A stretch of DNA of 60,094 nt, filler included, from Hausera hauseri (taxonomy: Eukaryota): the NCBI GenBank assembly GCA_046269625.1. It is 11 parts of 11 records of this genome, joined end to end, with 100 filler letters (N's around TTAATTAATTAA, not from the genome) between each part and the next. Parts side by side here need not be neighbours in the genome. Positions count along the whole stretch, not along the records: positions 1 to 4,462 come from JBJURY010568561.1; 10 more parts are not named here. One strand, written 5' to 3'. The position numbers were made by a program, and so were the translations under genes. Positions 1 to 60,094 of this stretch are shown piece after piece (position 1 is the stretch's first letter; each line of letters begins with the position of its first letter). Below the pieces are notes generated by a model. The model had not been told where the DNA came from, searched no databases, and worked only from the letters and a program-made list of their open reading frames with translations.

Positions 1-2115
1 AACTGTCCACGAAGCGAAGCCTGATTTTCCCAATATGCTTGGTAAAGGTTATATTCTTCCCCTCACTGTTGGGGATAACATCAATGTTTCCTTCAGTTCT
101 ATGTTGTTCCCGAACAATGAAATGGGAATTATAGCCACTGAGTTTATGGAACACTACAGGCACATATGGACATGTTTTGCAGCGTAGATTGCAGTTGTTA
201 CATTCAGCGCCCTGGTATTTGCCTGTAAATTGGCAGTGATCCCTGACTTTATGATTCTCCTTAGTGAATGGTTTGGAGCACAAGTACCATGCTGTTGCCT
301 TCCACCATTCTTCTTGTTTCTTCGACATGCGCATGTTGTCATTATGCTGCTGCTGCATATCTCCAATCACATGAGCCATATCTTCAAGTCGTTTCATGAA
401 ATGAGCTGCTCCGCCTGGACTCCTGAATAGAAATGGTTCACAATCCAGTCCTTTGGCATACATGCAATATGATAAAAGCTCATGATATTAGCATTCCATT
501 GTGCTGCTATGTTGTGGATTAGGACTACAACTCTTAACTGAACGCAGAATAGCCTCAAAGTCGCAATATATAACTATTGGAACCTTAATCTTCTTTTTGA
601 ACTCATTGAATTCAGTGTAATCCTCCTTGGGAAATTCTAGTATAATATAATAATTATTGCTTCAGTACATCTTGTGCTCTTTCAGCTTCTCCACAGCTAC
701 ACTGCCGATGAAATGGGACAACCATTGTATAGATATTTCTATTTGTCCATGATGTTTCGCAATTTGTGATCTGACTAGCCGCCCAAAGTCATTGATCCAA
801 ACATGTTTCTTTTCTCCATCGTCTAGTAGGAGCAGATCCCTATGATCTTCCAATTTAGTATTGCATACCTGCAGGGGATAGAATTTGTTCTCGTCCAGTC
901 CCAAGATATTGATGGACATGTTGTTGACTTCCCAAATTTTTAATTTCATCTATATATTGAGGGAACTTGATACAGTGGAAGTCATAGTTGTGCTGCATCC
1001 TTATATAGCCAAACTCGTGAAGCATGATTTTGATCCCTTACGAGTTTTGATAGAATGGAATACATTAAACACATGTTGTCGTTATTGTGGACATTGACAC
1101 ATGCTTTTTTATTAGCAATCCTATCAGGAAGCTGAATATATGAACTACCCCACATGGGAGAGTAGTTGTGAACATACACAGGCAATCTTTTGATGGTTGC
1201 CAGAATCTATCCGCTTTTCTTATCCTGGCTCTCCCCGGCTTCATGGATCAGCTTCTCGTGCGCCTCTTGCATCCATTATGCTATATTGGTGTTTTCCAAT
1301 ATTGGCCTATTTTTAGTCTTGAAGGCCTTATTGGATTCTCCGCCATCAACATTGACGTATGTGGCCTCCAGTTTCATATTGGCCTTAAAAGCTCAGCCAT
1401 GTTGTCCTGAAGAATTCCCTCTGTATCGCCTTTTGTGTATAAGCGGAAGTCTTGGAGGGTTGTTTGATTAGTTGACTCATTAACATCTGCGGCATTTTCT
1501 CTTTAATGCGGCATCATCAACTGGCCGCTGTCTTTGGCTTTTTGATGCAGCATCTTCTGCTGTTGCTATGCGTTTTAGTTCTGCATCGGGTCTTACTGCC
1601 AAAGCAGGCTGTGCAACTGGCTGTGCTGCCAAAGCAGGCTGCTGCTCATTAAATATGACCTTCTTTGACTTTGATTTGAAGTCTGTCAAATGGGCAATAT
1701 GATCTTCGTAAAACTGCATGTATTCTCCATCACATACAACCTCACATCCTGGGCAAATATAATAGGGGATCCTATTGAATTTGTATCCACAATAGCTCCT
1801 CATATTATTATGACAGTTCGGAGGGTTGTGTATTGCACATGTACAATACACGTATGAACTGCGTCTATGATTTTGCTCAGACATGGAAGTCATTATTGGC
1901 ATGGTGGTATTAAATATTTGTTTTTTCGACTTGGTGAAGGAAATCAGGTGTTGTCTATGGGCATTGTAAAAGTCTTCATATTTGGTCTGGAACACTAACT
2001 CATATGTAGGGCATATATAATACTTAGCCCTGTTGTATAGATGGCTGAAGTATTTCTGCATATTATTGCGGCAATTTTGGATTTGAACCAAACACTGTTT
2101 GTATAGATTGCACAA
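1..2115 (-). mobile_element. Degenerate Polinton/Maverick-type protein-primed PolB, family B, N-terminal half (tandem Cys/His domain, terminal-protein region, vOTU-like domain, exonuclease with endonuclease VII/HNH insert)
   Basis: Frameshifted pieces read GSSYIQLPDRIANKKACVNVHNNDNMCLMYSIL, LLLLDDGEKKHVWI, YCDFE, DHCQFTGKY and FHKLSGYNSHF. Collinear with the copies at 39758-41609 and 55146-57825. Confidence 0.88.
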
Positions 2116-2339
2116 CTAAAAATCAACCAAGTATTTGAGGAGCACAAATAAAAATCTCACTATTCGTGGAAGTGATTTTTTAAATAATAAAATATAGCCG
2201 TATCAATGCATACTGCCTCATTTATGAATTTTTTAAACTTGAATTTTTGAACACTCTGCAATACTTGGTTTTAATGTATCAAATAAATTAAATGCACTTG
2301 GGCTCCAAATATGTTTTCATACAATCAATTGGAGTGATC

Positions 2340-4562: not shown

Positions 4563-4737
4563 CGTTTCTGTGAGCTCACATAAAAACTGTACATCAAACA
4601 CATGTCCGGTCAAAATGTCATCGGTCAATCTCTGAATTTTACTTTCAATATACTTTTCCATTCGATTTTGTGTACTAATATTGATAAAGGTTTATAGCCG
4701 ATTTATGCGACGTCTGAGACTGCAGTGGCCAAGGACA

Positions 4738-7700
4738 CGTACCTGTGTCCCGTGTGATTTATTCAAAACACATGCCCGTATGCCGACTTTTATGAGATGC
4801 ACAAGCATCATCTCGGGCCATTCACGCGGTCCAAGATGATGCTAGTGCATTGCACCATGTACCACGGTACTGCACAAGTATAGTGCATGACGTTGGTGGT
4901 TGCCATAGTGCAATGGAGCAATACTATGGCACCACAACGGTGCACAGTAAACGAACTTATGTATGTCCCGGTTGTTCTATAGCTGATGATCAAATCAACT
5001 ATGAACAATTTTATAATCAGCACCATGATCACTTAAACCAGTTTAAGCGGTCGAAAAAACAAATAATAATGGACACATCAAAAAGAAGCAGCAGCAGCAG
5101 CAGTATTCCATCAACAAGTAGGAGACGTCAGGTATCAACAAGCCTTCACAAATACTTGCAAAACAACAGAAATCAAAAGCAGCAGATGGAGCAGCAGCAG
5201 CAGGAACAGGAGCAACAGGGGGAGGAACCACGCATTACTGTCAAGTACGATCTGAAAAAATCTTACGTGGATATCAAAGTGAACATGCCAGCGACAACAA
5301 CAACAACACATTTGAGATATGTTCCATCCATTGTGCGAAACCGGTTGGAATCTGAAGTGGAAAAATTCCAACACCACCACTGCAAAGTGCAGTATTATGC
5401 ACTTGTAGAATTCTAAAACGTGCAAGGCAACATGAAACAATGGTACCTGTCACATCGAGCTGTACCACATACCGAGGATTTTATTGCTGAGATTAGCGAA
5501 AAGCTCGAGGAGAAAATCGCCAGCTACACGGAAAATGGTAGTGGATGGCGAATTGTAAAGATTGTCACTCTCGGCTTTATCATTACAAAATCGAGTTACA
5601 TGATTTACTTGTCAAGGCGATCATTCATACCGACACCTGCAGCCCTAAAACACTCTAAGTCCGTAGTGAATGTAGAAAATAATAGCGACGAATACTGTTT
5701 TCTTTACAGTATTTTGACGAAGTGCCCAGAAATCGTACAAATCGTTCAAAACAATATCGTCAGTATTTTCCGAATTGGACTTTGGTGAAAAGCTGGATGC
5801 CGATGAAACTCAAAACCATTCCGGCTTTTGAACGGCGTAACCCGACACTGTCAATCAACGTTTTCCGGTACAACTCAGTAATAGCGATACCAACAGATGA
5901 GGAAATTTACAAGAATTATCACGTGGACATAATCTATCGAAGTCGGAACCCGAATGGACGTCCAATATACCTGTTGCTGTTGGAGCATGCAGAAAATTTT
6001 CATTACGTGGCCGTAACAAATCTGGACAGACTGCTGAACATTGACCATGACCAGTTCATCCAAAAACAAATACGCGAAAAATGGGAAAAACACGTGGCGC
6101 TATGCAGACGAAACGTATCGGGAACAACAATGTACTTCACGCCCGCCAAAAAGAAGCTGAGATTCAGTGACTTCGCAAACAGACAGTCCGGAATATGTGG
6201 TTTGTGCCGATATTGAAGCAATTCTACCGCGGCACAACGTATACGATCAAAAGCACATGCCAATCACCGTCGGTATGTTGCTAGTATCAATAAAAGCCAC
6301 CGGACAACCGCAGTATTACGTTTTCCACGGATGGAACTGTCTACGTGATTTCCTGCACCAGTTGGAGGCAATAGTGGAAGCGGAAATCGCACCGTGCTAC
6401 AGTAACAACAGCACTAAGTCTTTGATTTGGATAGACGAAGACAAACGCCTTACGTTTGCAGTCACAGACAAATGCTACCTGTGCCACAAAATATTACTAT
6501 TCGATAAACAGGAACGGCTCGTACCTTATCACGACCACTTTACCGGACGATAGTTGGGAGCAGCATGCAATTCATGCAATTTAGCACGGCGTGTGCGGCC
6601 ATTCCTGCCGGTGATATTTCATAACTTAAGGGGTTATGATTGTCACCATATTCTGAAATGGGCCATTAATGGATTACCACACTGGGAGCTGTCCGTAATC
6701 CCAACAACGATGAAGAAATACCTGTCTCTGTTGCCACGCATAAACCGGTTCCAGGTGCGATTCCTTGACTAATTACGGTTCCGCAATGAGTTTCTAGCAA
6801 AGCTGGTAAATTCCTTTCCGGATGTGCCGTTAACATCAACGCAGTTTCCGATGCATATTGCACGTAGCAAAAGCATATTCTCGTATGACTTTGCTGTATC
6901 GTACGAGCAGCTTCAAACAACAGAGGAATTGCCGCCGCAGTGGCTTAGTGTAACAGAAGATGAATATCGCAGAGCACAGGAATATTAGTCAGAGCTCGGC
7001 TGCAGAAGCCTATTAGATTATATGTTCCAGTATCTGAAACTGGACGTGTAATTGTTGGCCGGCGTGTTTAATATATTTCAGACTAAGGCGTTGGCGGAAG
7101 ATGGGCTGGAGGTGCTCAACTTTTGCTCCATACCGGGAATGAGGTGGACGTCGGCTCTGATATCATTGGACTGGGACATTGAGCTGTTGCAAGACGCAGA
7201 AATGTACCGACTGTTTGATGTTGGTATTCGTGGCGGCATAACATTTTTAACAAGCACTACGTAACCAGTGATGATAACACAACATCACTGCTGTACATTG
7301 ACATTAATAATAATCTGTATGGCTAGGCGCTTTCGCAACCTTTGTCGTACGGTTTATTTGAATGGTTAAGGGACAAGCGAGATCTGGAAGCAATATTGCA
7401 AAATTTACCGAGAGTAGACACGGCAGAAAACAGCTCATTCGGCTACCTTATGGAAGTCGATCTCGTTGTACCGGATGTGTTTCATGACGATTTGGACCAA
7501 TTGCCTGTCGCCCCAATCAGCCAATGTCCGCTAGGCGGCTAAAAGGTGAAGAAACTTCTCATGACGCATGAACCGAAGCTGAATTACGTGGTCAATTGGC
7601 GTCTGCTACAGTTCTACATGCATCTCGGTGTAGGAGTCACACAGGTGCATCGCGCAATGAAATTTAATCAGGCGCCGATATTCAAGGCACACATTGACGG

Positions 7701-8788: not shown

Positions 8789-9207
8789 TCAAATCAAACT
8801 GAATTTTGACAGTTTCCACATTGAGGATTTCACGAACATCATCTCCTTGTAGCCTTTCAGCTTCAGACTTAAGTAACCTTTAGCTCCTTCAGCTTGCAAT
8901 GCTGCTGATGCTTCTCCACTTGAACGGATAATTTTCCGCATATTGCCCTTGAGAAAAAATGAGGTATCTCGAATATCTTTAGACAACTCCAAGTCATTGT
9001 CGAGTTTTTTCATTGTTTCCTCAATCGTGTTTAAATCACTGTTGTTAATTTTCTTGGGCAGCAGACCATACTTCACCTGTTTGAGTTTTATCGGTTGCGC
9101 CAACGTCAATTGAACAGGCGTTCGTAGAAAGTTCAACTTGTACCCATTGTACAACCGGGACGGTCTAACAGAATATTCGTTGTACCTGGGCTGACTAACA
9201 GAACTCG
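8789..9207 (-). CDS. Unknown PolB-A-linked ORF X, copy 1 (native start apparently lost)
   Basis: PRYNEYSVRPSRLYNGY...EGAKGYLSLKLKGYK...MWKLSKFSLI is homologous to 59601-60077 and 26383-26547. The listed ORF 8789-9364 runs on into antisense PolB-B sequence beyond ~9207. Confidence 0.75.
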
Positions 9208-9209
9208 AT

Positions 9210-11123
9210 GTCCTACATATGCCCATCATGAGAATAAGTCTCAAGTCTATCATACCCGCATTTTTACGCCCAACATCCGCACCATCTCCAACCGTTTGCC
9301 AAATCCAAAAAGGCAATCTTTTCCATCGATAGAAATGACATTGACTTACAGAGGAAATCAACAATTAATCAAGTTGGTGGAGGTAAACGACATCAACAGG
9401 ATTCTACCCAGCACCCAAAAACGAAGAAACAAAGGTCAGTAGCAGTGGATAAGGAAGCAATCAATCGCAAAATGGTTATCCATTTTATTTCTGTAACCGG
9501 TCAAAAGAGTCTTCCTAAATTTTTGGAATTTTCAAAAGCGGATGCAACCACGGCCTTAAATGAATATCTATCGGAACTCAATGCCCTAAAAGTTAACCTT
9601 GTTCTGGAGGCTGACTTTGAAAAGGATAATGAGCTGTCAAAAAGTGCTTTCAAAACATAATCAAGTCTGTCCTGCAAGCCTCAGAAATAACCAATTTCTT
9701 GGATGGAGAGTTTACGAAATTGATAACTAAAGCCGAAGAAAGCTATGCTAAGAAAAGCGGATGGACTCTTTCGAACATCAAAGGACTCAACTTGAGGATT
9801 CATAAATATTTCCCAATGCGTGGATCATAATACATTAAGCTGCCTCAATGGATTGAAGATAAAAAGGCATACATTATTGTACAAAACGCTGATAATTTAT
9901 GTTTCAAGTATTCAATTCTCTCAAAATTTGTATCTACACATTCGAAACGAGTTGAGCAGTACACCAACATTAATCATCCGTATAATTTCTCCTGTGTATC
10001 ATTTCCCCCATCGTTGCTGGATGTCAAGAAATTTGAAAAATTTAATATAAGAATCAATGTTTTTGCGACTGATGAAAAGGATAAAATATTTCCGCTCAAA
10101 GTCTGCAGTGAAGAAAAATCAGACCATCGGGATTTGCCGCTATTAAGTGATGGTGAAAAAAAACACTATGTATGGATCAAAAATTTTAAGCGGTTTGTTA
10201 GCTCATAGATCACAAAACATATGAATCGCATATTAATATGCAAGAAGTGTTTTTCACATTTTCATGATAGATATGAAAAATTAGCAGAAGAAAAGCTAAA
10301 GGATCACAAAGAGTACTGTAATGAGAAGAAATCTGTCCGGAAAAATTTTCCACAGGAAAATTTCATATATTTTAAAGAATACGAAAAAATGCTACGAGTA
10401 CCCTTCGTAGTCTACTATGATTTTGAGTCGATATTGACTCCAATCCATGCATGTCACCAAAATAATGATCATTCAAGTAATACCAGCTATCAGTTGCATG
10501 AGACAATGTCTTTTTGCATGTTTGCAAAAGGATTTTCAGACGAGCCATACCTATACAGGAACCGAAATGCAGTATCAGTTTTTATGAAACGGTAGGAAGA
10601 ACTTGTTCACAGTATCGAAGATATGAAACCGAGAAAAATGTTTATTACAGCAATTGAGAAAGCCCAATGGAAGAATGCTTCAGTATGCTACTTGTGTGCA
10701 AAACCATTTACCTCTGACAATCAGAAAGTCCGGCATCACTGTCACATCACGGGAAAATATCGTGGTCCACCATGCAATTCTTGTAATCTCCGCGGCCGAA
10801 CGGTTAAATTTATCCCTGTGATATTTCACAATTTAAGTGGGTATGAGTCACATTTCATTATAAGGGAATTGGGAAATGTGAATGGAAAATTGACGTTATT
10901 CCACATAGTGAAAAAAAGTACATTACTTTCACTGTGTATTTTGGAAAGATGCAGCTGCATTTTATAGACAGTCAAAAATTTATGACCAGTAGCTTGTATC
11001 AACTGGTGAAAAATCTGTCAGAAAGTGAACTAAAGGAGACCAGAATATACTTCCAGAATGACAAATTCCATCTAGTTAAACGAAAGGGTGTTTTTCCCTA
11101 TGACTACATCACGTCATGGAACA
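9210..11123 (+). mobile_element. Degenerate Polinton-type pPolB, family B (more divergent copy), cut by the contig end
   Basis: SYICPS...FYAQHPHHLQPFAKSKK, KSGWTL, HYVWIKNF, YYDFES, CYLC...RHHCHITGKYRGPPCNSCNL, FHNLSGYE, KRKGVFPYDY. Confidence 0.9.
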
Positions 11124-11223: not shown

Positions 11224-12150
11224 TTTCCGAGATTACGATGTTACCGAAAAAGATGACTATCAGAATTTGCTGATTTTTTCCAGAGATATTTCACAAGGGT
11301 TACCCATTGTCGAAATAATTTGTTACGCACGAGAAATTCACAGTAGACCCATCATGAAAAGGTCGAATTGGGGAGTTTAACAGGCGACGTCAGAGAAAAG
11401 GTAAAAGCGTGCAAGAATATGCATGTGCCCTTCAGAAATTGGCTCATAGAGCGTATGCAGATGGTGACATAAGAGAAGACGCTCTCCTGACTCAATTTTG
11501 CTACGGAGTTACTAAGGAAATACAAAACTATATCACTGTTGCTGACCCTGACACATAAAGAAGCTGTCAGTAAGGCTAGAAAATTGAAGTAAACTACGGG
11601 AGATTGGAAAATATTAAAAAGCCTTATAAAACTGATGATAAAAAGATGAAAACCCTCAGTCGAAGAAAAATTTTCAAAACCGTTTTATATAACTCAGAAT
11701 CAAACGGAACAACAGCAGAAGAAGGTTACATGGCAACAAGAACAACCTCAAAAATCTGCAATGAGGAAACCAACGGTTAATCAGAATGGACAGCCATTAT
11801 GCTTTGCATGTCAAAAATATGGGCATATGGTTCGTACCTGCCCTAATCAAGGACAGTCAAGTCAAAAGAAAAGGAACGTTGATACAGTAGGTAATATATC
11901 TGATGCGGATAATAAACACGAAACTACAGATACACAGCCCAAAGAGACAATTGAAGAGCTACAACAAAAGATCAGATCCAAATTAAAAGAAAGTAAAACC
12001 AATATGACAGAGGATGAAGATAAGATAGCCGAATTAAAACACCTGTACCTTGAATTAAAGGAGCAACAAACTTGCGAGAGAAGACAGAAAGTCAATGATA
12101 AAAGTTTATTTATTGCTCCTATTGGCAGACCCAAAAAGATTCCTGCATAA
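11224..12150 (+). mobile_element. Degenerate LTR-retrotransposon Gag (capsid C-terminal domain and CCHC zinc knuckle)
   Basis: RRRQRKGKSVQEYACALQKLAHRAY...EDALLTQFCYGV...PDT at ~11380-11560 and CFACQKYGHMVRTC (CX2CX4HX4C) at ~11800. Confidence 0.8.
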
Positions 12151-12503
12151 GGATCAGATACCGAAAAGAAAAGTGCCAAGAAGAAGGATAAACCCTTGAT
12201 ACCAGAAGAAGAAGAATTGAAGACTCCGGAACTTAATCTACCTTCCGGAAATGGAAGTGAAAAGAATGAGTCAAGTGAAGAAAGTGAACCCAAAGAAGAG
12301 ATAGAAAGAATAAGGAAAAAGAAAAAAAGGAAAAATCTCCCAGTTTTGAGTCCTTACTTGTGGATCTAGATCAGGATGGCATAGAAATAGTTGGAAAAAT
12401 ATCCAGATATGCCAACCAAGAACTAATTGCTGGAACTCGGTTTAGACAAGATCTGTCTATGCTACTATAACAAACAATCAGCCATCAACAATTTGCAAAT
12501 TTA

Positions 12504-13058
12504 TTGGACTTGCTGCCAATGTATGCTGCAAGAACAAGCCCATATCAGAATATTGTACGATACATAATTTATCGATATGCGGATAGAGTGAGGATAGTTG
12601 GAGAAAATCCTGAAGTAATGGTTATATTACAACAGTATAACCAAGATTTTCATGTTCTAAGAATGAAGTCATTGGATACGATACTGACATTGAAAAAGAA
12701 TATCAATGGGATTATTCAGCCTCAAGGAGAAATAGAATTGCGTTTCTATGGACGCACTCTGCTGGATTACAAAACTTTCTATGAAGTAGATATCTGGGAA
12801 AACCGATACAATCATGTGTGTATTACTTATAGACAGACTGAACAAGAGATAATTGATGAAATTATTACTGATGTTAGGCGAAAAGAAACACAAGAAAGTG
12901 AAAGCCAGCATCAAGAGCAACTAGTAGAAGCTGGAGTGAACATTACCATATCAGAGAAATACAAACAGATAAGAGAAATCCTGGTAGACGAAAAGGAACG
13001 ACAAAGTTTTATCAATTTGTTACGACCCCTTAAACAATCAACTCACATTGACAATTAA
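12504..13058 (+). CDS. Protein segment with a ubiquitin-like domain, downstream of Gag
   Basis: VMVILQQYNQDFHVLRMKSLDTILTLKKNINGIIQPQGEIELRFYGRTLLDYKTFYEVDI matches the ubiquitin pattern DTI..vK.kI...rLiFaGkqLeD.rTl.dynI. No C-terminal GG. Confidence 0.65.
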   Translation: MDLLPMYAARTSPYQNIVRYIIYRYADRVRIVGENPEVMVILQQYNQDFHVLRMKSLDTILTLKKNINGIIQPQGEIELRFYGRTLLDYKTFYEVDIWENRYNHVCITYRQTEQEIIDEIITDVRRKETQESESQHQEQLVEAGVNITISEKYKQIREILVDEKERQSFINLLRPLKQSTHIDN

Positions 13059-17720: not shown

Positions 17721-19627
17721 TTACATGTTGGTAATTCTCTTGATTTGGTTCTTTTTGGTTGTACTGGTTTCCACTTGCCCTTGAATATCTCTTGTTACGC
17801 TTGGGGCTTCTATGAATTTCTTCTCTATGTTCTTTGAGTTTATATTTCCGGTCTGCTTATCTGTTTTCGCTGGAATTTTCGGTTTTTCGGTTTTTTTCTG
17901 TACCTCTGATTTCGCTGTTGCCGATGTCTTTACTTTTTCTGCTTCTTTCGGCGTTTCGGTTGAGCTTTTCGATTTTCCGATTACTTCTTTCCTTTTTATC
18001 AGGTAGAGATGGTGATTCATCGATTTTCTATCTTTTTGGTAAATTTTTTAATTGCTTTTTCTTTAAAGAATGCACTCGAGTACTCAACTAAAATGTAAAA
18101 CAAATAAAATCAGCATAATAAACATAATGAATATAAGATATTTCATTTATTTACAAAATTTTCATTACTTGCCTTGAGCTAACATGCTTTTAATATTCGA
18201 TTTGCGGTGCATTTTATGTTCTGACGAAATAAAAAATATCCATCGAATGTAGTCTGTGGTCAGTCATGTGCATAGTCAAAATGGAATATGCTGTTGTGAA
18301 TTAAACCAATACATTTTAGATTGACAGAACATCAAGGAAATATTATAAATCGAATATTAAAAAACAGAACGAACATGTTGTCAAAATTTCTAAACATGGT
18401 GGGGAGGAATTTGAACAAGTGCCCAATTCTATTACATTTTCATATTATCAATCATCATAATATTTTGCACATGTCTCTGATTATTTGTTATAAAAATTCA
18501 AATTCGTTTCATTGAAAGTTCAACCCATTGGGTAACGAGTTACTGATTGGTATAATCCCGTTTCTGTTGTCAATTAAACTACAATCCTACATAAATAACT
18601 ATTGCACAATGACGGCAGCTATGAGCTGTTCTCAGTTCAACATTCCTGTCAAAATTTTTTTCATAGAAAAGTTTCTGATAAAAGTTAGATTTATGTCAAC
18701 TTCGGGCAGACAGACCGTAAATTTCTGTCGAGATAATCGATTGACGATAATTTTTCATAGGTTTTGCACAAATAATTTAATGTAATTTTGACAAAATGAT
18801 GAAAATTTTCATAAATGAATGCTCAATATATGCCTAAAAACAACAAAGTAAAAGTTAAAATTTTCACGATAACTAAAGACGTTTTCACCTCCAAAGTAAC
18901 GTACATAGTAATTGAATTCTGCCTTGTAAATTAAGTGTCTGAACTAAAATATCAAAAATATGTTACATAATTGCAAGTGTTGCGTAAAATTTATGAAAAA
19001 ATCAAGAAGAATTTGAAGAGTCGTTAATCAATGAAACGATGTGAAAATACAAAGATTGCATTAATGACATAAACATTGGAATTTTACCACGTTCGACAAA
19101 TATGGTCAACTTTTCATCGTTTTGTAGAGATAAATATCTGTGTGGCACTTGCACAATATTCCATAAAACACCAATTTTATTACAATTCATAATCTCTACC
19201 CAACTCTAACCATATTTCTAAGTCTAATTCTCAAAGAAATTCAATTTTATAATCGAGTCTTACGTTCTTCATCGAGGTAGTACCCATTCATTGAACAATG
19301 TAAAGTCCCGTTTGGTACCATAAACAAAAACGTCTGTCAGCCTACAAATTCTTTGCTGTAGCGAAACTGTTTTTAGTTAATATCAAAGCGAATGTTTATA
19401 GAGGAGCTTTTGTCAATAAAAAATTAACTGAAAAAAATATTAAAATTTTTATCACCTGTAATCCATTTTATAATAAGTTACTCGACGAATTTTAATTTCA
19501 TTTGAATTATCATTTTGTCAAATTGACCATGAATATTTATCCTAGCTGCAGACTAATAATAGTCATATGATGAATGAGGTAGATCAATTTGAAACCAAGT
19601 CGCGAATGTTAATTGAAATTTTTACAG

Positions 19628-20302
19628 GTTGAAGCAGATGAACAAGAAATATCGAAGAAAATCCACGTTGGTTACACATCAAACGACATAACAATTGAAG
19701 ATTTACGTGGATTATTTGAGGATTATGGATATGTGACGGACATATTCATTCCGAAACCATTTCGAAATTTTGCATTTGTCACATTTGACTCGAGTGAAGC
19801 TGCACAGAAACTCATTGGACACACACTGAAATTGAAGGGACACAATCTGGTAATCGGCAGTGCCGTACCGAAAATCAGCAATCGTAAAAACCAACAGCAG
19901 CAACAACAACTTGGCATCTATCCGGAATCGGCCATTCCTGCACACACGTATCAGGCACGATATGCCAATGGCATGATTCCATCGTATGGTTGGCCGACAA
20001 TCGGTGTAACACAGAAAGTTCAGCAGACACCATATGGTGGTGGTTATTCAAATATGCCAATTAATCAAGGTGGTCAATCATACGTCATTGCCAATGGGGC
20101 ACGTGGCAATGAGACGTTCCAGAATTTCGGTGGTTATGAAGCCATGCAACAAGGATTTATGGCCGGTCAATTTGGTGAATATGCCAATCAAGGAACAGCA
20201 GCAAACACCGCACTGAATCTCCTCAAGAATCCCGATGTCGTGGCTGCTATTGTCGCTGCAGCTAGCAAATCCGGGACAATGCATGGGAAATTTCCCCAGT
20301 AG
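19628..20302 (+). CDS. TARDBP: Last coding exon of a TDP-43/TBPH homologue (RRM2 plus G/Q/N/Y-rich tail)
   Basis: KIHVGYTSNDITIEDLRGLFEDYGYVTDIFIPKPFRNFAFVTF...SAVPK matches TDP-43 RRM2 (DVFIPKPFRAFAFVTF...SNAEPK). Splice acceptor TTTACAG at 19621-19627. Confidence 0.88.
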   Translation, partial: VEADEQEISKKIHVGYTSNDITIEDLRGLFEDYGYVTDIFIPKPFRNFAFVTFDSSEAAQKLIGHTLKLKGHNLVIGSAVPKISNRKNQQQQQQLGIYPESAIPAHTYQARYANGMIPSYGWPTIGVTQKVQQTPYGGGYSNMPINQGGQSYVIANGARGNETFQNFGGYEAMQQGFMAGQFGEYANQGTAANTALNLLKNPDVVAAIVAAASKSGTMHGKFPQ

Positions 20303-21559: not shown

Positions 21560-23215
21560 ATTACCGGAATTCCGAAACCCATTCAGAAATCATTCATAAC
21601 CCACAACTCCAACATCGCCAGATTCTACAGCCTTATGAAAACACAAGCTAAGAAATGAAGTAAAAGTATGACCAATAGTATCGAACATCAATTCACAGGG
21701 CACGAAGATCTGGCTTCTCCAATACCTAATAAAACCGGTCTTAAAGGACTTCTCAGCCCACTTAGAGGCAGTTCCGAACTAATCAAATCAATCGAAGAAA
21801 TAGGAGAAACGATAAGTTGAGGCAACTACCCCTTTAGCTTAGACGTAGTAGCCCTATACGCATCCATTCCCTCCAAAGACGCAATACAGGCCGTATGCAG
21901 AAGACTAGAAAACAAGAATACCAACTACTACAGCATAAACGTCGAGGACATAAGAAAACTTGTAGAATCTGTCGTTGACACTACATACTTCACATTCAAC
22001 AAGGGTAAGTTCAAACAAATCTCAGGATTACCAATGGGGAAAGGCCTATCAGGAAATGTAGCCATTCTCTTCATGGATCAGATCGAACGAACAGCGATCT
22101 TAGACAATAACATCACCTTGTACAAACGATACGTAGACGACATCTGCATTATATGCAGAAACAAAGAAGAAGCCGAAGAAATACACGTGAGCATGAACGC
22201 TCTGCACAGTAGCATCAAATTTGAAATAGAACACCCAACAAAAGATAAATTACTAAGCCTATTACACTTCACTATCTCAATGCAGAAGAACGGAACCTAC
22301 GAACTCAACTTTTACAGGAAACCAGCCCTAAAGGACATATGAACTACGACTCGGCAGTTCCCAAAAAGACCAAGACAAACAATCAAAGAAGATATCGCCA
22401 GAATCAAAGGAAGTTGTAGCAAAGAAAAAGAACTTAAAGAAAATCTAGAAATACTTGAAAGAAGATTGACCATGAACGGCTACCCGATAGAATACATCCA
22501 GGAGAAACAAAAAAGATCAACCAGGAAAAGAAAAAAGAAGATAGCAAGAAAAACAAACAAAGGATGAAAAAAGAAAGAGAATATTCTACCACGACTTCCC
22601 CTACATATCAGACTAAGTGACCAGAAGGATAAGGACTATATTCAGAAAAGAAGGGTTCGACGTGAGACTATACGGTAGGAAGTACACCCTAAGAAACCTC
22701 CTCAAGAAGGCTACCAAGGAACCATGCAGAACGAGCAACTGCCCACTCAACAACGACCTATTTCTCAGGAAGAATGTAGTATACAGATTGACATGCAACA
22801 AGTGCAACAAAAACTACATAAGCAGCACAATAAGAGAGTTGCACACCATAGTAGCTGAACACCTAAAGGACGAAAAAAGCTCAATGTTCGAACACCAACA
22901 AGAGTGTAAATCAGGATTCTGGACCGAAATACTAGACACAGCTAAGGACCAGATAAACCTAAGGATCAAAGAAGCCATCCACATAAGAAGATCCAAACCC
23001 CAACTGAACATCAAACAAGAAATCGGCGATATAAACAGCATATTGTTTTGAGGAACCAATAAAAATAAAGAAAAAGGAAAAATAACAAAAGAAAGACTCA
23101 TTCAGGAAGACCAACACCAAAATAGCCATACTCTGAAGAAGGTCTTATTATTATCGAAATAGCAGAACCAAACAACTCGCAACATTATTGTCCTCTAAAA
23201 CACTTCAATTTGTTT
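21560..23215 (+). mobile_element. Penelope-like retroelement (RT plus GIY-YIG endonuclease), degenerate
   Basis: FSLDVVALYASIP, QISGLPMG, YKRYVDD, FYRKP, NGYP; then NVVYRLTCNKCNKNYI..T.R.L...EH...KEAIHI...PQLN. Confidence 0.92.
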
Positions 23216-32654: not shown

Positions 32655-35600
32655 ATACGCAATTGTTCAATGCTGTATTCAAACTAACAGAACCACCAAT
32701 TGATTCGATAATACAACGATTCTTTAATGAAACTGCAATGAGGACACAAAAACCTAGTGATTTCTTATACACCTCGTTGGCTCACTTACGCACTCTGGGT
32801 GTGACCAAAGAACACAATCCGGATCTACTGCGCCAATATTTTCTTAATGCTTTACCCATTTAAATTAGGGCTTTACTTACTGTTGTTGAGGATTCTACAG
32901 CTTTAGATAAACTAGCTGAATTAGCCGATAAAGCACATGAAGTTTTACAAATACAATCACAGCCCATCATATCAGCCGCAATCACAACCGACGACAATGA
33001 ACGACATTCATCTATTGAACACCAATTGAACCAATTACTCACCGAAAATGCGGAACTACTACATACAATCAATAACATTAATGATAAGCTGAACGAACTT
33101 TCCTCACATCGACGAAATGCTTCTGCTCCTCACCTTAGCATTCTGTCTCAAGAAATCGAACACCATCACCCGCGCGGCCATTTATATGTTATTATCATAA
33201 AAAATTTAATAACAAAGCAAATAAATGCTGTTTAGGGTGTAGATATTATTCCTTCCATCTACACTCAGATAAAATTGCTTGAATCTATCATGCAAAATTT
33301 GGATCTAATGCTTGGAATTGTATTTCAGGCTGTAACTATAAAAATAACAATAACTATGCCACTGATAGACGCTCCATTTTCTCTAACAATAACATTCCTA
33401 ACTCACCAATCCAAAAAAAAAACTGATTTTGCCGCCAGCATTCATGGCAGAATCTGGCAAAGGCGACTTACCTAATTCTTCTTGCCGACACACTTCTTTT
33501 GCAGTCTTTACACTAAAAGCTGCCATTTCTGCTCTTAACATTCAATCCATAAACTTTCTCATCGATACCGGTGCAGTGACCTCATAACTACCACTTACTT
33601 TTCCGGTTCAGCATTCTTCACTTAAAACAAAACCGTTATACACCGCCTCCGGTCAACTGCTTCATATTTGCGGAACATTCAAATTATCTTTCACTCTCAC
33701 AAAATTTTCTACACCATTTCATTAGACGTTTACAGTCACTAACGTCCAGACGGCAATACTTGGCTCCGATTTCCTGTCGCACTATAACTGGCTAGTCGAT
33801 TGTAACCAACGATGCATGAAATCAAATATACTCGAAGACTGTAGTTCAGGAATAGGCAGCACCCAGACAACAGCACAACGAACGGTAAGTAGGCAATCAA
33901 TCTTAAAACACTTAATATCTCTAACCTAATTCTCTTAACTATTACGCTTTACCTCGTAAGCTTTCAAAGGATAATGTCGATAGTCAATCAGAGCTCAATG
34001 TCGACATTCACGATCTTGTATCTTCAGTAAATCACTAAACAACACCACTTACTCAAATAAGGTCTTGGACAAGACCATTCTACATCAAATTCCACTCGAT
34101 TTTCCATCAACAATTAACCAACATTCACCAAGTACTGCTAGCAACATCGGTTCATCGTCACTTCCAATATTCCAGCAACTACCCGTAAGTTTGCAACAAT
34201 TCATCAATGCCTCGTGCCCTCGTATACTTCAGAAAGATCGGAATTTCACCCCTGTAAATGGCATTTACCACCATATAATTAAACGTCACCAAAGACCAAT
34301 TTAACAAAAAGTCTGTCCATTGTCACCGCGTCGTAGGCAGGCAGTAGAGACGGAATTTTTTGAACTCGAACAATTAGGTATTGTCCGTAGATCTAAATCC
34401 CCATAGTCTTCGCCTCTCCACGTTGTCCAAAAAAGATGGATTTTTCCGACCATGCTGCGATTACCGCCAGTTTAATACTTTAACAATAATGGATGCATAC
34501 CTACTACCATTAATCAGAGACATATTATATCGGCTTAATTCTACTACAGTTTATTCAACAATTGATTTAGCCAAAGCATACCACTAAATTCCTGTCGCAC
34601 CGGAAGACATCGAGAAAACTGCAGTTACCACACCTTTCAATCTCTATGAGCACTTGTACATACCTTTCGGTCTCCGGAATGCTGCGCAGACTTTTCTGCG
34701 ACACGTCGATTCAATCCTTTCAGACTTCCCTTTTGCACACCCATATATTGACGATATCTTGGTTGCTTCTTCTTCTATTAAACAACATGAGGAACACCTA
34801 CTATCTATCTTCAAACGACTTAATCAGTTCAACCTACACATCAATTTTGCAAAATGTAACTTCTTCCAAAAACGCGTTAATTTTGTTATACATATTATCT
34901 CATCAAACTGCCATTCACCCCAGTATGATCGAGTTGAGACTCTTAAAAACGTCCAACTACCTAGGACAACCACAGAAATGTGCAGTTTTCTTGGTACCTT
35001 GCATTTTGTCCACAAATATATCCCATATTGTTCGGAACTCACGGCACATTTTGCACACTTAAGCGGAGGACAAAAACACCAGATAATCCAGTGGACACCA
35101 CAAATGGTTAACAGGTTTGATAGGCTACGCGAAGGACTAAAGACTGTTGAAATACTAGCATTTCCTAAGCCTGATACTGAGCCAATTCTGACCACAAATG
35201 CATCAAACATCGCAGTAGGCGCCGTACTACATCAGTTGTATAAAAGCGAAAATTAGCCCATAGAATTCTTTCCCCGAAAATGAACGCCGCCAGAAACTAG
35301 ATATTCAACTTTCGGTCGGGAACTGCTAGCAATAGTTCCCCACTTACTTACAGCTCGTCATTTTGTTATACGGACTGATCACAAACCGCTGATTAATATA
35401 ATGGCAATAAAACATCCTTCAACTCGACAAGAATGACAAATTTCATATTTATCCACATTTAACTTCGACAATAAACACATTGACGGTTTTGACAATCTAG
35501 TTGCCGATTTTTTATCTCGATCAGTCGGTTCAATCAATTTTTCACCAATTTTTACCCAGACAAAACTTTAAGAAAATCAGCCATCTCAAAATATTCTCAA

Positions 35601-37158
35601 ATTGTTCACGTCGCACCACATCGTTGATGGCGTGGCCTTACATACTTCCAAACCAAGACATTCCAAAATAATTCTTGCCCCATCTTTACACAAAAAGCAT
35701 TTGATAATGGTGCCAAGGCAACTTTCCGCTTACTTCAACATCAGGTAGTTTGGCCGTCAATGCGCTCCTATGTGCAAGCATGGGTTAAAGAGTGCGTGGC
35801 TCGTCAGAAATATAAAACCGTAAAACATTTAAAACCACCATTATACCACTTCTCCCGAAAATTACGTTTTGAAACAGTACATATTGATATCGTCGGTCCT
35901 CTTCCAATAGACAACGGCCACCAATTTATTCTGACCATTACTGACCGTTTCTCACGATGGCCAGAAGCCAACCCACTGCGGAGTACAAACACTGACACAA
36001 TAGCCGATACTTTCATTTGTACGTGGATTAGTAGGTTCGGCTCTCCGCGTTACATCATGTCGGATCAAGGCTCTCAATTTAAATCAAACCTGTTTAAATT
36101 CCTGGTCAACCGATTGGGGATAAGCCACATTCATACAACACCTTATCATCCCCAATCGAATGGCCTTCTCTAACGTTTCCACCGAACATTGGAAACATCA
36201 ATTAGAATTCTTGCAGAGTCCAACACCAATTGGTCTACTCTTTTTTCGTTCATTCTGCTTGGCTGGCAGAACACTCCGTCTAGGATGCTCACCAACGGAT
36301 GCTTTATTCGGAATCCCTGTACGGTCACTGTTTGAACTAACCGCTATAGAAGAGACTTCTATTTTCGAGAGGATACGAGCAGCACAGGATCACTTCGTTA
36401 CAATCAGCAAGGATTCGTTTCTCAGGCTCTTACATAATGACAAATCTTACATACCCGAATACTTATACTCGGTAAAGTTTGTATGTTAAAAAATCAGACA
36501 CCGTGCGGTTTTCAGCCACAGTACTTAAGACCTTATAAATTAGTGCAGCTGCATTCGCACAACGCTATTATCCTCAAAGGCGGAAAAAATTGTAGTGCAT
36601 ATTACTAATCTAAAACCTGTCTTTTACGTCAAAGATACTTCACCAATCGAAACATCAACCTCATTCCTCACCCCTTTACCTAACTCTACCCCAACTTCAA
36701 TTTTCCAGTCCACCACACATCATTCCGCTTTCCCCGTTTCTATGCATACATCGTCACCTCTCAATGCCATTCCTGCTCCCATTTCTGAATTTTTCTCTCC
36801 TAATTTTATCACTACTTTTGCTTCACAACATATTCCTATACTTTCGCCTATTTCTACTTCTCCACTCAACTTATCACCTTCCAAAACTATCGCAGAAAAC
36901 TGGAATAATTTACCTACAATCATCTGTTCTCCATCTTCTATATTACCTTCCCCAGAAACAACACCCAATCATACTAAAAATAATGTTTCTTTTGCCAAAC
37001 CCTACCAGCAGTCAGACACTATAGTGAAGGTACATCGCAAATCAGTCCCATTCAGTACCTATAGCAAACAACTAAATAACGAAAAATTACAACGTCTTTT
37101 ACGCACAAGAACTTATTGGACAAATTATACTGTTCGTTCTCGGGATTTTTTGTCAATC
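32655..37158 (+). mobile_element. Degenerate Ty3/Gypsy LTR retrotransposon internal region (gag-PR-RT-RH-IN), CsRn1-like CHCC Gag
   Basis: Gag CYYHKKFNNKANKCCLGC; protease FLIDTGA (~33556); RT FRPCCDYR, IDLAKAYH, PFGLRNAAQTF, YIDD; RNase H TNASNIAVGAVL, RYSTFGRELLAI, TDHKPL; integrase VHIDIVGP, SDQGSQF, YHPQSNG. Confidence 0.95.
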
Positions 37159-39757: not shown

Positions 39758-41609
39758 GTGTTCCTCTCAATATTACCCAGTTCCAGAACAATGAAGTGGG
39801 AATCATAACCACTGAGATTGTGGAACACTACAGGCACGTATGTACATGTTTTGCAACTCAGATTGCAGTTGTTGCATGCTGCACCTCGATATTTGCCTGT
39901 AAAATGGCAGTGATCCCTGACTTTATAATTATCCTTGGTGAAGGACTTGTCGCACAAGTAACATGTTGTTGCCTTGCGCCATTCATCTTCTTGCTGCTTC
40001 GACATGCTCATTGTATCCTTATGCTGCTGAAGCATGTTTTCAAGCCTATGAGTCATGTCTTCTAATCTCTTTATAAAATGTGCTGCTGCGTCTGGCCCTC
40101 TGAATAGAAATGGTTTATAGTCCAGTCCTTTTCATACATACAATATGATGAGAGTTCATGATATTGGTATGCTGTTGTGCTGCTATGTTGGAGATTATAA
40201 CTGCTGCTGTGAACTGGGCTGAGGGTAGTCTCAAAATCACAATAGACAACAATCGGCACCTTCTGCATCTTTTCGAACTTCTTGAATTCCAGGTAATCCT
40301 CCTTGAGAGTACTGCTCGGATGGAATAGTTCGTATTACAGTAGGTCGTGTGCTCCACCAGCTTTTCTGCGGCTATGTTTCCATTATAATGGATAAAGCAT
40401 CTCTCACATATTTCCAGCCTTCATTTATGCTTGGATATTTGGGATCCTACGAGGCGCTCAAAATTACTGATCAGACGAAATGCCTCTTTTCTCCATCATC
40501 TAGCAGGAGTAGATCCCTATGATCATCCAATTCCTCATTGCACACATATAAGGGATAAAATTTGTCCTCCTCCAATCCGAAGATGTTGATACAGATGTTG
40601 TTCACGCTTTCAAATTTCACGACTTCATCTAGGTTCGGCGGGAATGAAATACAACTGAAGTCGTATGTGTGCTACACTTTGTAATATATCCAAACTCGGG
40701 AAGCATTATGTTGACCCTGGACTAGTTTTGATAAAATGGCATACATGAAACACATGTTGTCATTATTATGGACATTGATCCACGCCTTTTCCTTAACTAT
40801 CCATTCAGGAAGCGGTATGTAGGAGCTGCCTCTCATGGGAGAATACTTGTGCACATGCACAGGTATCCCCTTTATTGTTGATAAATTCCAACCAATTCTT
40901 GTCCTGGCTTTCTTCGGCTTCGCGGATAAGCCTTGAATAGTCCTCAGTAATGAAATCCTTAATGTTAAAGGATTTCAATAGTGGCCTGTTCTTTGTCTTG
41001 AAGGCTCTATCAGACAGCTCTCCTTTGACATTGGTGAAGGTGGCTTCCAATTTGAATTTCACCTTAAGGGCCTTCAGCTCAAACAAGTTGTCCTGGAGAA
41101 TTCCTCCTGCTTCCTCCTTTGAATATTGCAGGAATTCATGGAGCTATGTCTGCCCCACTGCTGCTATGAAGTATCGCCGCACTTTGCTCTTCAGTGCAGC
41201 TGCATCAACTGGGCGCTGTCTTTGGCTTTTTGATGGAGCATCTGCTGCTACTTTTGATAGGCGTTTTTGTCCTGTATCAGGCCTTGCTGCCAAAGCAGAC
41301 TGTGCTGCCAAAGAAGGATGCTGCTCATTAAATATGACCTTCTTTCTCTTTTAATTAAAGTCTGTCAAATGGAAAATATTATCTTTGAAAAACTGCATGT
41401 GTTCGCCATCACATAGAGCCTCACATCCAGGACAAATATAATAGAGGACTCTATTGAATTTGTATCCATAATAGCTCCTCATGGCATTGTGGCAATTCTG
41501 AGGGTTGTGTATTGCACATATGCAATACACATATGAACTGCACCTTTGGTTTCCTTTGGCACGAAAGTCGTTATTTGCATATTGGTACTGAATATTTGTT
41601 ATTTCGACT
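39758..41609 (-). mobile_element. pPolB family B, N-terminal part with Cys/His domain
   Basis: YYICPGCE, LKALKVKFKLEATF, RGSSYIPLPEWI, DNMCFMYAIL, YCDFET, RDHCHFTGKYRGAACNNCNL, FHNLSGYD. Confidence 0.92.
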
Positions 41610-46008: not shown

Positions 46009-46693
46009 TTTCTGAAACACAATCACAAAAGATGAGACACCTCTGAGCTGTTATATATCAGAAACTAAACGTGAATCTGCTGAATGGAAGATTCCAGGAG
46101 TGAAACCATCACTGAAAATGAGAACTGGCACATCTCACAAGAAATGCATGATGCTAGCAATCTTTTGGGACATGAAAGACTTTCTTAAAGTGGATTTTGC
46201 TGCATCAGATATCAAATTCATCTCTGATTATTATTTGCACCCGATAAAGGAAGCAAGAAGAAAGCGACGGAAAAGAGGAAAGAATGAATTATGGATATTG
46301 CATGACAATGCTCCAATCCACACATCCCATCTGACAACAGCGACAATTGATTCATGTGGATTATCACTGGTAGCTTACCACCATAGAGTCCTGACCTCAC
46401 CCCTAGTGATTTTCACTTTTTCCGACAAATGAAGAAAAATTTGCGAGAAAAATTCTTCGATTGTGCTAGTGATCTGCACCATTATGTCACAGATTCTTTG
46501 ACTTCATACCCAAAAACCCTCTATGAAAAGGACTTTTTGGACTTGGTGTCATGATGGCGAAAATGCGTGGACGTTGGTGCAGCTTATATTGAGAAATAAA
46601 CCTAGACTGGTTGCTCGTTTGGTGTTGAAAGTTTGAATAAAATTGGTTGTTAATTTCTTGTCGAGTCTAAATACTTAATGGGCGCACCACGTA
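46009..46693 (+). mobile_element. Mariner transposon, 3' part with right TIR and TA target site
   Basis: ITKDET, MLAIFWD, LHDNAPIH, SPDLTPSDFHFF, W.KCV...G.YIEK*. TIR ...ATACTTAATGGGCGCACCACG followed by TA at 46692-46693. Confidence 0.92.
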
Positions 46694-50331: not shown

Positions 50332-50728
50332 TAAACGACAGAAGGTTCGGTTGCGTGTTGGTCATATCTGTTAAAGGTTCTCGAACGTCTTTCGGCGCAG
50401 ACGTTAGGTGTTTGATGGCAGATAAAACATCACTTTGCAAGGCGACGAGTTGCTCAAACTCTTCATATGTAAGGGAGATCCCAGTGTTTGTTGGAAATTT
50501 TTTTTAGTTTCCCCCAAAGTATCTTCTAACATGTATCAACACTCTGTTTCGATACGAGGAAACTGTAACTAGCTTCGCCGGACCTATCGGTTTTGCCAAG
50601 GCCGAGTCACCAGTCATGTAAACGTCATTGGCAATTTGTGTAAACATTTTGAAAAAACAGACCCTCTGGGTGTGTGCAACTCGATTATATACCATTATAA
50701 CCGGTTTACGCCGGATGTGTGACGTCAT
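50332..50728 (-). CDS. PC4-like ssDNA-binding protein of the Maverick (one in-frame stop)
   Basis: KLVTVSSYRNRVLIHVRRYF...*..FPTNTGISLTYEEFEQL matches the PC4 signature V.V..f.g...i.iR.y....P.kkGIsL..e.w..L. Confidence 0.8.
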
Positions 50729-51215
50729 AGATTTTTATACCACCTGAGTTTCCCCGCAGCCAAGGTCGGATGAGATGCCAAATGAGGCTATCATTGACGT
50801 GTTGTCTCATTGAGGAAAAACACATGGTGACGCGTCGCATGCTCCCACCTCTGGCTTTGATGAGGATAAAATAAATGGCGTAGAGCCCGCAAGCATTACT
50901 AAACACATCTTGTATGGTGTGCCCATTGTAGACCGGTTCTCTGGTAGAATTTCGTTTAATGAAATCCAAAATGTCGGCGTGCAGCGGTGGGAGGCCAAAA
51001 AAATCAAAATAATGAAACGTGCCCATGCCATCAAAGTAAAGGGCTACCCAATGCGTACCAGGCAGATCGCTGGGGTCGGTATTTATGACAAAGGCCGCCG
51101 GCTCTGTCGGGTCGATGCGTTTGGGTACCATGTCTCGGGGTATGACTCTGACAGGATGTCGGCGGACGAAAATGTCAGATTGTAAAATTGTTTGTATCTG
51201 TCGAGTGTCCATCAT
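50706..51215 (-). CDS. Maverick adenain-like cysteine protease (peptidase C5)
   Basis: Open 169-aa ORF with INTDP...PGTHW, YFD.FG and Q.....ACG.Y catalytic motifs. Confidence 0.93.
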   Translation of the reverse strand: MMDTRQIQTILQSDIFVRRHPVRVIPRDMVPKRIDPTEPAAFVINTDPSDLPGTHWVALYFDGMGTFHYFDFFGLPPLHADILDFIKRNSTREPVYNGHTIQDVFSNACGLYAIYFILIKARGGSMRRVTMCFSSMRQHVNDSLIWHLIRPWLRGNSGGIKIYDVTHPA

Positions 51216-52425
51216 TTAAGCCACAAAGTCCAGTAACACTTGTCTGGTTTTGGAAATTTCAATGATATAGACTTGCTCAGCGTACACCACCACTTGTAAA
51301 GGGTCGGGCATCACAGTGGAGGGCAGTTTTTCGCTAATTCAAACTGGTCCCCGTCCAAAAGGCTGGGACTTAGGTCGAAAACGTAGAGGGCGTAACCGTC
51401 TTTGAAACTGTTGTAGTCGACGTCGCAGCCAGTGTCCTTACCGATCAGACCCATGGCTAGACTGGTACCAAAGAAAGCATGGGTGTAATGGTCGCGGTCG
51501 AAGTCTATCATTAGCGGCTTTTCGGTGGTCGTCCTCCCATCGACGGTGACGATGAGTACATCAAACCGAAATGTTGAAAGTTGAACGGGTTATTTCTATA
51601 GGTCCCATTAAAGGCCGAGGAATTTACTATACCTAGCACGATTCGCGTCGGGGTTTGACTGAAAAAAAACGATTGTTTTGAATGTGCGACAACATTCCTC
51701 TGGGTACGAACAATGTCTTTATCATGACTCGTTTGATGGGGTATTTCATGTTCGCCGTCACCAACACTTTTTCATGGGCCAGAGAGATGGCCGGGTGTAA
51801 CTTGCCTTTTCTGACCACCAGGACGGCTGAAATTATAACTGATTTGTAACCTACCGCGGGGTCCTCGGCTATGAGGTTGAATGAGTCTTTAGAAGGGGTG
51901 AGTTTGATTTTTACGTCCACCCCATTCAGCATGTAACAGTCTTGGGTGAAAATGGCAGCTTTGGTTTTGTCGAAAAATTTTGGCGTGTCGTTGTAGTACA
52001 GGGCTGCCGTCAGGTGACCCCTCTTGGCTTCCCGCCCGTAATTTAAAACCATCTTGAGGTAACATCTGAAAGGGTAAGTGTTCTTGCTCGGCGTGATTAA
52101 CGTGTCGTTCAGGGCGATGTCAACTTGGGAAAATAAACTGTGCAGGTAATTGTTGACCAGGGCCACTTCGGCACCGTCGGGTAAATTGTCGCCATTGGCC
52201 AAAGCGACTTTGACTCTCACATGTACAAAAGTATTAAACAAATCCAGATACTCTTCACGGCTTCCCGATATTACAAATTCTATGGGGGGCCCCGTGCGCA
52301 AGAGAAGCGAGAGGGTGAATTTCTACAAACTGTCCTTCCTCTACCGCCGTTTGCGTGGGAGGAACGCTAAACTAATCCAAACCCGAGTGGAGACATTCGC
52401 AATTGCCGGGGTGAATAAGAGCCAT
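51216..52425 (-). pseudogene. Maverick major capsid protein (hexon/PY), degenerate
   Basis: LD*FSVPPTQTAV, GPPIEFVI.G..EYLDL..T, VNNYLHSLFSQVD, YPFR.Y, MLNGVD, YPIKRV, GYALYVFDLSP, VVYAE...I...RQVLLD. Confidence 0.9.
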
Positions 52426-52427
52426 TA

Positions 52428-52909
52428 TTAATCAAAGATGTCTGAATGCTGCTGCTTCTTTACTCGTCGTTTCTTGGACTCGTTGTGAGAACCGATCCGG
52501 TCGACGGTTGGTTTTATTCTTTTATTAAGGGTTCGCCGGGCGGCACGGCTTTTCTTTTACGATGCAGGCCACCACCCAATTGGTTGCCGGTCACATGATT
52601 CACGGCCCCTTGCAACAGTCTCTGTCCGGCTTCTTTGGCTCGATCTCGGAAGGCTTCGCCTACGTTTTTACCTGTTAACGTGTCCTGGGCCACTTTCAAA
52701 CCCGTCCTGACACCTTCCCTGATTAAAGCTTTTCTGCCTGTTGTTAACCACGGCAATATTATTCAGTCCAACCTGCTAAAGAAACTGCCAATGCCTCTTC
52801 CTCGTTGACATCTGCCGCCGACGAAAATGGGGATGCCGTCTCCCGCTTGACTGGTGTAAACGTCTTTGTAAACTTCTGCTCTTCGATGTAAAGGAGTGTG
52901 TCTGACCAT
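52428..52909 (-). pseudogene. Maverick basic core-like protein (QRGxGIG family), degenerate
   Basis: YTSQAGDGIPIFVGGRCQRGRGIGSFF, followed by a basic C-terminus ending DIFD. Lies between penton and hexon. Confidence 0.75.
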
Positions 52910-52911
52910 CT

Positions 52912-53685
52912 TTATTGAAAATTGGAATGTCTCTTGGGTCGAAAATGTTACGTCACCATCGAAGAACCGTTCACGAATGGGATATTTTGTCCCAGGTCGT
53001 TGGTTAAAAGTATTTCCACGGTGTCAAAGGAAAAGTGACTCAGTGGCAGGTAGTGGGGTTTGTCGTAAATTCTAAAGACCGAAACAAAATTTCTGTCCAA
53101 CATGGGCACCGTTCATAACAAAGGTACGATGATATCTCCAACTGGTCTCACGGCAACGATATCACAGTACACGAACACGTTTCTTATGTTGCTGTCCAAA
53201 TTGTCTTGCGCTTTACCCACTTGGAGAGGGTCCTTGTCCATTATGTGGGTTTTTGCCAGGCCCAATATATTTTTCAACTTGTCGCTGATGACGACATCCG
53301 CCCCCGCCTCGAATCTTTCCAGCAAGGTGGTTTTCTGCATTTTGTGGTAATGGATTTTCAACATGGGCAGTTCGCCGCTCTTTGCTCGTGAGGTAAACTG
53401 TTTGTTTAATTCGTCAAAAACATCGGAGGGTGACTTGTACAGGCCGGGTCTTAGTGTAATTTCAAACGACGGCTTGGTGTCATTCACGTGAGGGTGGTAA
53501 CATAACCACACTTCGTTCTCTAGCACGTTAAAGTAACTGTTTGTGAATTCACTCTCTGCCAAACCCACTTTGTATTGTGAGTTCAAGTCTATGGTTTGCA
53601 GGAGTTTCACGTAAAAGTGTTCGGGTCCGTTATCGGGAAATGTTTTCATAGAGGCATTGCTCAGCAGAGTCACGTAAAAACTCAT
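52912..53685 (-). pseudogene. Maverick minor capsid protein (penton/PX), with stops in the C-terminus
   Basis: MSFYVTLLSNASM..FPDN, VGLAE, VFVYCDIV....VGD...PLL, Y.KPHYLP, IPF..G...VT.HFR. Confidence 0.9.
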
Positions 53686-53703
53686 CGCAAGCTCGTCTTT
53701 GGA

Positions 53704-53925
53704 TTAGGACAGATAACCGAGAGAACTGCACAGTAAAACTATCCACAGCTTGTTTTCCTGATCGTTGCTCGTAGTCAGATTGAAGAGAGACATGCAGATG
53801 ACGGTATATATCGCCAACAGTTGCGAAAAAAACACGACTTCTACGCTAGGAACTAGTTGACCAAACCAATATGTGATGGGTCTTCTTTCTACTATTTCGT
53901 TGAGGGGAGTGGCTTCTTCAGCCAT
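53704..53925 (-). CDS. Small two-TM Maverick protein
   Basis: VVFFSQL.AIY.VI..SL.NLT......LW..LL.SSLGYL. Hydrophobic, located between integrase and penton. Confidence 0.7.
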   Translation of the reverse strand: MAEEATPLNEIVERRPITYWFGQLVPSVEVVFFSQLLAIYTVICMSLFNLTTSNDQENKLWIVLLCSSLGYLS

Positions 53926-53927
53926 GA

Positions 53928-60077: not shown

Positions 60078-60094
60078 TTGTTAAATAAGACAAA

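Follow-up and report, generated by a model that had tools for sequence, protein, structure and literature searches.

Polintons and alpha-adintoviruses encode a polymerase precursor, pPolB, composed of terminal-protein (TP), vOTU, EXO and PALM domains with an HNH insert (PMC11161782, PMC8502044, PMC10748475). The available portions of these papers describe no domain ahead of TP; the word 'zinc' is absent from the main text of PMC11161782 and PMC10748475 as far as it was accessible, and the accessible part of PMC8502044 names it for separate 'Oncoid' open reading frames (ORFs) upstream of PolB. The portion of PMC11161782 at hand places the linking Ser or Tyr in a loop ahead of the last TP strand, argues that vOTU cleaves between TP and vOTU, and leaves the details of TP removal unclear. 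Here we analysed a stretch of 60,094 nucleotides from Hausera hauseri (assembly GCA_046269625.1), made of 11 joined parts and referred to as the window, in which an earlier note had described a repeated Cys/His unit ahead of TP. We conclude that this unit is a real, selected part of pPolB without a family name. The literature searched, comprising main-text passages, titles and the openings of abstracts, contained no description of the module; the SI of PMC11161782, the maps of genomes in PMC8502044, subscription papers and Repbase may bear on its novelty.

Six-frame reading and profile searches of the window confirmed the unit at all six places named beforehand. Using a control profile of 92 units from outside, without rows from the same genome, the six instances scored 22–53 bits, as compared with −0.2 bits for the next-best match elsewhere in the window and at most 4.5 bits in 20 windows after local shuffling. 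Two copies formerly taken for full units, at 4731 and 9199, correspond to profile positions 33/35–71, being the C-terminal halves of damaged copies: the former lies in a frame different from that of the neighbouring unit 2 and has its 5′ half deleted in comparison with L051/L056, and the latter is placed at a nested-insertion junction, with stops inside. Units are likewise present at 1648–2080 on the minus strand, where they share an open frame (1480–2115), although the first of them runs to 2112 and not to 2080.

In the better-preserved copies the unit spans about 70 aa, not the 60 or so first proposed, and holds two Cys/His groups. The N-terminal group, C-x5/6-C-x4-H-x2/6-C, had been missed; after the C-terminal group, CPxC-x12/15-H-x2-H, come L..F and a basic pair. 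We regard this anatomy as close to certain. Across 95 domains from 70 outside proteins, conservation in the second group was 0.99 for C38, 1.00 for C41, F52 and H56, and 0.98 for H59, while in the first group, where occupied, it was 0.98 (Cys, n=54), 0.97 (Cys, n=62), 0.89 (His, n=65) and 0.87 (Cys, n=71), figures that are partly circular because the profile derives from motif-picked units. The invariant Cys and His residues are consistent with the zinc-binding module originally proposed, and the unit is predicted from its sequence to bind two zinc ions. An I/V-W motif replaces the first group in 15 of the 87 motif-picked units, with a sub-lineage comprising P0015, P0016, P0045, P0047, P0056, P0061 and P0065, and in one family of the H. 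hauseri genome unit 1 lacks this group as well. With the first group missing from some units, the CCHH part constitutes the core, to which the CCHC part is added. The predicted structure (pLDDT 88.6, pTM 0.72) is a compact arrangement of helix, three strands and helix (H15-26, E27-30, E33-38, E43-46, H49-59), in which the last Cys of the N-terminal site opens a long helix packing onto the second site. On this prediction the C-terminal half is a C2H2-class variant rather than a new fold class, and the CCHC site is an addition to it in a known kind of slot.

Pfam and profile comparisons matched the unit to no named family, as the earlier note had anticipated, and no confident match to a described C2H2 or BED finger was found. 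The top structural match in both structure searches was the SERRATE/ARS2 finger (PDB 3ax1, 6f7j, 7qy5; PF04959), which shares the helix, three strands, helix order and a kink past the His pair, and which the available part of its description implicates in nucleic-acid binding (PMC3177193). The unit differs from it in spacing (C-x4-C and H-x4-H in SERRATE/ARS2) and in sequence profile, and a comparable RNA-binding role, for example on the element's own transcript, is very improbable. The assembly contains two rather different ARS2 genes (L086, L087), one of which looks vertebrate-like, so that the assembly may mix organisms.

Among the Pfam families listed for 21 members, and among 25 of the 43 families for 46 members, no match to BED or the CCHC knuckle fell on the unit, and PF00096 was absent. 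Against 11 BED fingers (PF02892) of this genome the unit reached an hhalign probability of only 2.8%. The unit does not fit the BED pattern of a W..F motif, CxxC and HL-x3/4-H, having Phe at the place of the last BED His (0.86 at +4 after the unit's last His), and ZBED2 (PDB 2djr) was absent among the structure matches listed for the second model. Classical C2H2 fingers (PF00096) have in common with the unit the slot before TP and the tandem arrays, and six proteins hold both kinds. However, the unit, with about 70 aa and C-x2-C-x12/15-H-x2-H plus a second site, does not meet the spacing C-x2/4-C-x12-H-x3/5-H, H-x2-H being found in 98% of the 95 domains, and in the six proteins PF00096 scored the classical fingers alone. 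Its secondary structure is compatible with a hairpin plus helix, CTCF and Kaiso fingers being retrieved by Foldseek at E >2 only. The retroviral CCHC knuckle (PF00098), C-x2-C-x4-H-x4-C, agrees with the N-terminal site in its C-x4-H-x4-C tail, but the first spacing of the unit is x5-6. A ubiquitin-binding (UBZ-like) finger serving the vOTU deubiquitinase would suit a polyprotein that also holds an OTU protease, and weak zf_UBZ (PF18439) matches lay over the unit (E 0.0024 in P0019, 0.14 in P0034, 2.1 in one of 21 members); yet every match fell under the Pfam cut-off (best 17.9 versus 25.6 bits) and the unit has no conserved Asp between its histidines, as UBZ requires, which makes this role barely plausible.

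Three genome searches gave at least 150 matches each, and a fourth, with an outside query, revealed two more families, bringing the pPolB unit families in this genome to at least five. The unit had been assigned to two distant pPolB types; it is indeed common to both, but the copy at 9199 is a member of a third family. The order in one frame was one to three units, a long low-complexity linker, TP, vOTU, exonuclease (HNH) and palm, and the frame after the unit contained the TP loop (S-G-W), the vOTU Cys and His, ExoI, the HNH insert and the palm, domains being assigned by motif and position, not folding. Open frames link the unit to TP, vOTU and ExoI: L022 (443 aa) runs from Met through two units to TP and vOTU, L021 (542 aa) takes in the tail of unit 1, then unit 2, and extends as far as ExoI, and the family B frames L115 and L116 run from the units through TP to the vOTU Cys motif. 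The unit thus belongs to the pPolB reading frame, as had been claimed, and intact carriers hold it within pPolB rather than in a separate ORF; in the window, continuity with TP apart from isolated stops holds for 4796–5788 and about 40900–41550. Of 45 loci retrieved with the unit alone as query, 35 had TP downstream at no more than 900 bp, seven contigs were too short, and the three loci without TP detected within 900 bp all continued into the usual linker. TP was also present in 20/20 further loci, for which the query contained TP.

Pairwise dN/dS was 0.32 for unit 1 of family A (14 of 20 copies in register), 0.28 for the unit 1 core of family B (14/22), and 0.36 (13/18) and 0.38 (14/17) for the TP cores; by these sequence estimates, the unit is under purifying selection equal to that on TP. 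This argues against the idea that the unit is a passenger, or has a structural role only and binds nothing itself, as do its retention and duplication in two distant lineages and the long low-complexity linker to TP. Absence from most pPolBs and loss of the N-terminal site in some copies would fit a passenger, but we consider it hardly credible.

A HMMER search of 1.84 billion representative sequences returned 70 outside proteins with the unit at E ≤0.001 (26 at 1e-10), containing one unit in 49 cases, two in 17 and three in four. TP was present in 16, and 12 ran on without it; classical C2H2 fingers lay upstream of the unit in six. Sources were checked for 20 proteins (18 ENA and 2 JGI assemblies, none with an informative name), and the family appears to be limited to assemblies with poor annotation. 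One cluster held an intact pPolB of 1,286 aa with two units (PF02945 E 7.9e-09), and P0073 presented the complete TP-vOTU-EXO-PALM architecture with HNH insert, matching the described precursor in full. Where their sequence extends that far, carriers retained the loop serine of TP as well as the Cys and His of vOTU; P0016 lacked the vOTU Cys motif, probably through a frameshift. The unit was found in 0/104 full-length pPolBs related via TP and vOTU, named insect proteins included, and classical C2H2 motifs occupied the slot before TP in six of these (e.g. P0086, Nilaparvata). The carriers split into two groups in a quickly built tree covering 31 TP-to-ExoI regions, with 12 carriers and 19 of the 104 non-carriers, the latter picked by likeness to type A alone and three rows of the alignment less than half filled. 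A repeat test of this grouping on a revised tree rejected the carriers as one clade (p-AU 0.00067), a split that would fit transfer or repeated loss alike. The tree of the units themselves branched without resolution.

Intron-like segments were observed in families A, B and D (L006-L039, L044-L118, L135-L162). In family A, a GT..AG segment of about 45–50 nt lay ahead of the first unit, with AG directly before it in 14/15 loci and ATG followed by GT(A/G)A upstream in 11/13. An acceptor-like AG preceded the first unit in 15/16 loci of family B and 5/8 of family D, and AG directly preceded the unit in 0/16 loci of family C. These boundaries suggest that Polinton polymerase genes are spliced, with a micro first exon. 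Of the outside proteins, 42 of the 70 ended within 60 aa past the unit, and 16 of those had a tail resembling a translated AT-rich intron right after a single unit (P0017, P0022, P0025, P0029-P0033, P0036, P0039, P0040, P0042, P0043, P0058, P0060, P0072), as called by a pattern of our own on protein sequence alone. In P0054, P0066 and P0068 the unit was followed by coiled-coil-like or Ser-rich sequence and not by TP, a possible non-polymerase use. A broader proposal would make the unit a new two-zinc fold and a mobile exon, exchanged among co-resident Polinton lineages, used also in non-polymerase spliced genes, and forming a host-adapted hook on the genome-linked TP that determines the place at which the element is kept or integrates. 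It draws on the intron ahead of the unit here and on the apparent introns just behind it in many outside relatives; we consider it unlikely.

As to function, we tentatively favour a weakly sequence-specific nucleic-acid or chromatin tether on TP, a reading suggested by the slot in common with C2H2 arrays, the tandem copies and the conserved basic pair after the last His. K/R occurred at +8/+9 after this His in 0.59 and 0.68 of the 95 outside domains, and the KK segment comprises the sole surface residues kept across lineages. The unit would be an N-terminal accessory module of the polymerase precursor, occupying the slot taken by classical C2H2 fingers in other pPolBs. Priming would take place on the TP loop serine, as inferred from the accessible text of PMC11161782, and the vOTU cut between TP and vOTU would leave the units and TP on the 5′ DNA ends. 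Release by vOTU, as suggested in the earlier note, needs modification: with the cut argued to lie between TP and vOTU, the module would part from the polymerase along with TP and stay on the DNA end. The tether would bind duplex nucleic acid largely irrespective of sequence, assist docking of the precursor at the ends and keep the linear copy in the nucleus; its weakest step is the ligand, which would be duplex DNA or chromatin contacted via the basic segment that follows the last His by one to two turns.

A sequence-specific reader of the terminal inverted repeat (TIR) or origin, as the earlier note had it, could be expected from tandem fingers beside a priming domain and from a C2H2-like predicted fold. 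This idea gained no support and is improbable: the helix surface is acidic and variable at the base-reading positions of classical fingers, copy number ranges from one to three, and related pPolBs mostly replicate without the unit. The same acidic, variable helix surface over a conserved aromatic core would suit a protein adaptor on TP, whose partner, for import, retention or integration, would be a nuclear or chromatin protein of the host or else the integrase of the element. Its lineage restriction, its swapping among pPolB lineages, as is often seen for host-facing parts, and its place before coiled-coil or Ser-rich sequence in the three proteins named above also agree with an adaptor. With a surface unconserved across lineages save for the KK segment, and a slot shared with C2H2 arrays, an adaptor is possible but rather unlikely. 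For the questions of import, nuclear holding and integrase hand-over of TP-linked Polinton DNA, this small, foldable and selected module offers a concrete reagent. N-terminal fingers on pPolB were already known as a class; the unit contributes a further zinc-finger family without a name, comprising at least 70 clusters at 50% identity, and indicates that the slot ahead of TP is exchangeable between distant polymerase lineages.

Table 1. Units, pPolB domains and adjoining segment in the window
Feature	Position	Strand	Score or basis
Intron-like GT..AG segment, 45 nt, adjoining family A first unit	2116..2160	-	read from sequence
Family A unit 1, ligands degenerate in window copy	1918..2112	-	50.9 bits
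Family A unit 2, complete CCHC + CPxC/HxxH module	1660..1863	-	52.1 bits
TP domain, family A pPolB, broken	1123..1398	-	phmmer, TP region of P0073, 67 bits
Family B unit 1, C-terminal half alone	4731..4835	+	22.4 bits
Family B unit 2	4865..5062	+	53.1 bits
TP domain, family B pPolB; in frame of unit 2, one stop	5375..5713	+	97.6 bits to TP of P0044
Family C unit, C-terminal half, contains stops	9199..9315	+	25.6 bits
Family C pPolB, broken: TP, vOTU, exonuclease with endonuclease VII (HNH) insert	9502..11122	+	PF02945 E 2.8e-07
Family A unit 2	41339..41548	-	46.3 bits
Tail of family A unit 1, end of its stretch	41549-41609	-	
TP domain, family A pPolB; in frame of the unit, isolated stops between	40804..41146	-	frame reading + profile search

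No TIR was located on the unit-bearing contigs, which are mostly <8 kb, and among the compared loci a fragment like the window's putative capsid ORF was found 2.3 kb upstream of the unit in L173 alone. The window region 50332–54842 contains an adenain protease (PF00770 E 1.3e-05), and other ORFs there, without Pfam match, resemble Polinton major capsid, penton and integrase C-terminus. A conserved ORF without Pfam match was observed at 8789–9364(-) and 59601–60080(-), and also in L126, L127, L129, L178-L181 and L186. This ORF is convergent with the family B pPolB, just downstream of it, and in the window a family C pPolB is inserted into the ORF near 9200. A zinc-knuckle ORF at 11650–12150(+) adjoins a weakly ubiquitin-like ORF at 12471–13058(+), both under the cut-off. 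At 19613–20302(+) a TDP-43-like arrangement combines an RRM (PF00076 E 1.5e-09) with a Q/G/N-rich tail behind it, and fragments at 21821–23051(+), 34588–36489(+) and 46016–46432(+) resemble, as judged by eye, a Penelope-type reverse transcriptase/GIY-YIG, Gypsy pol and a mariner transposase, respectively.
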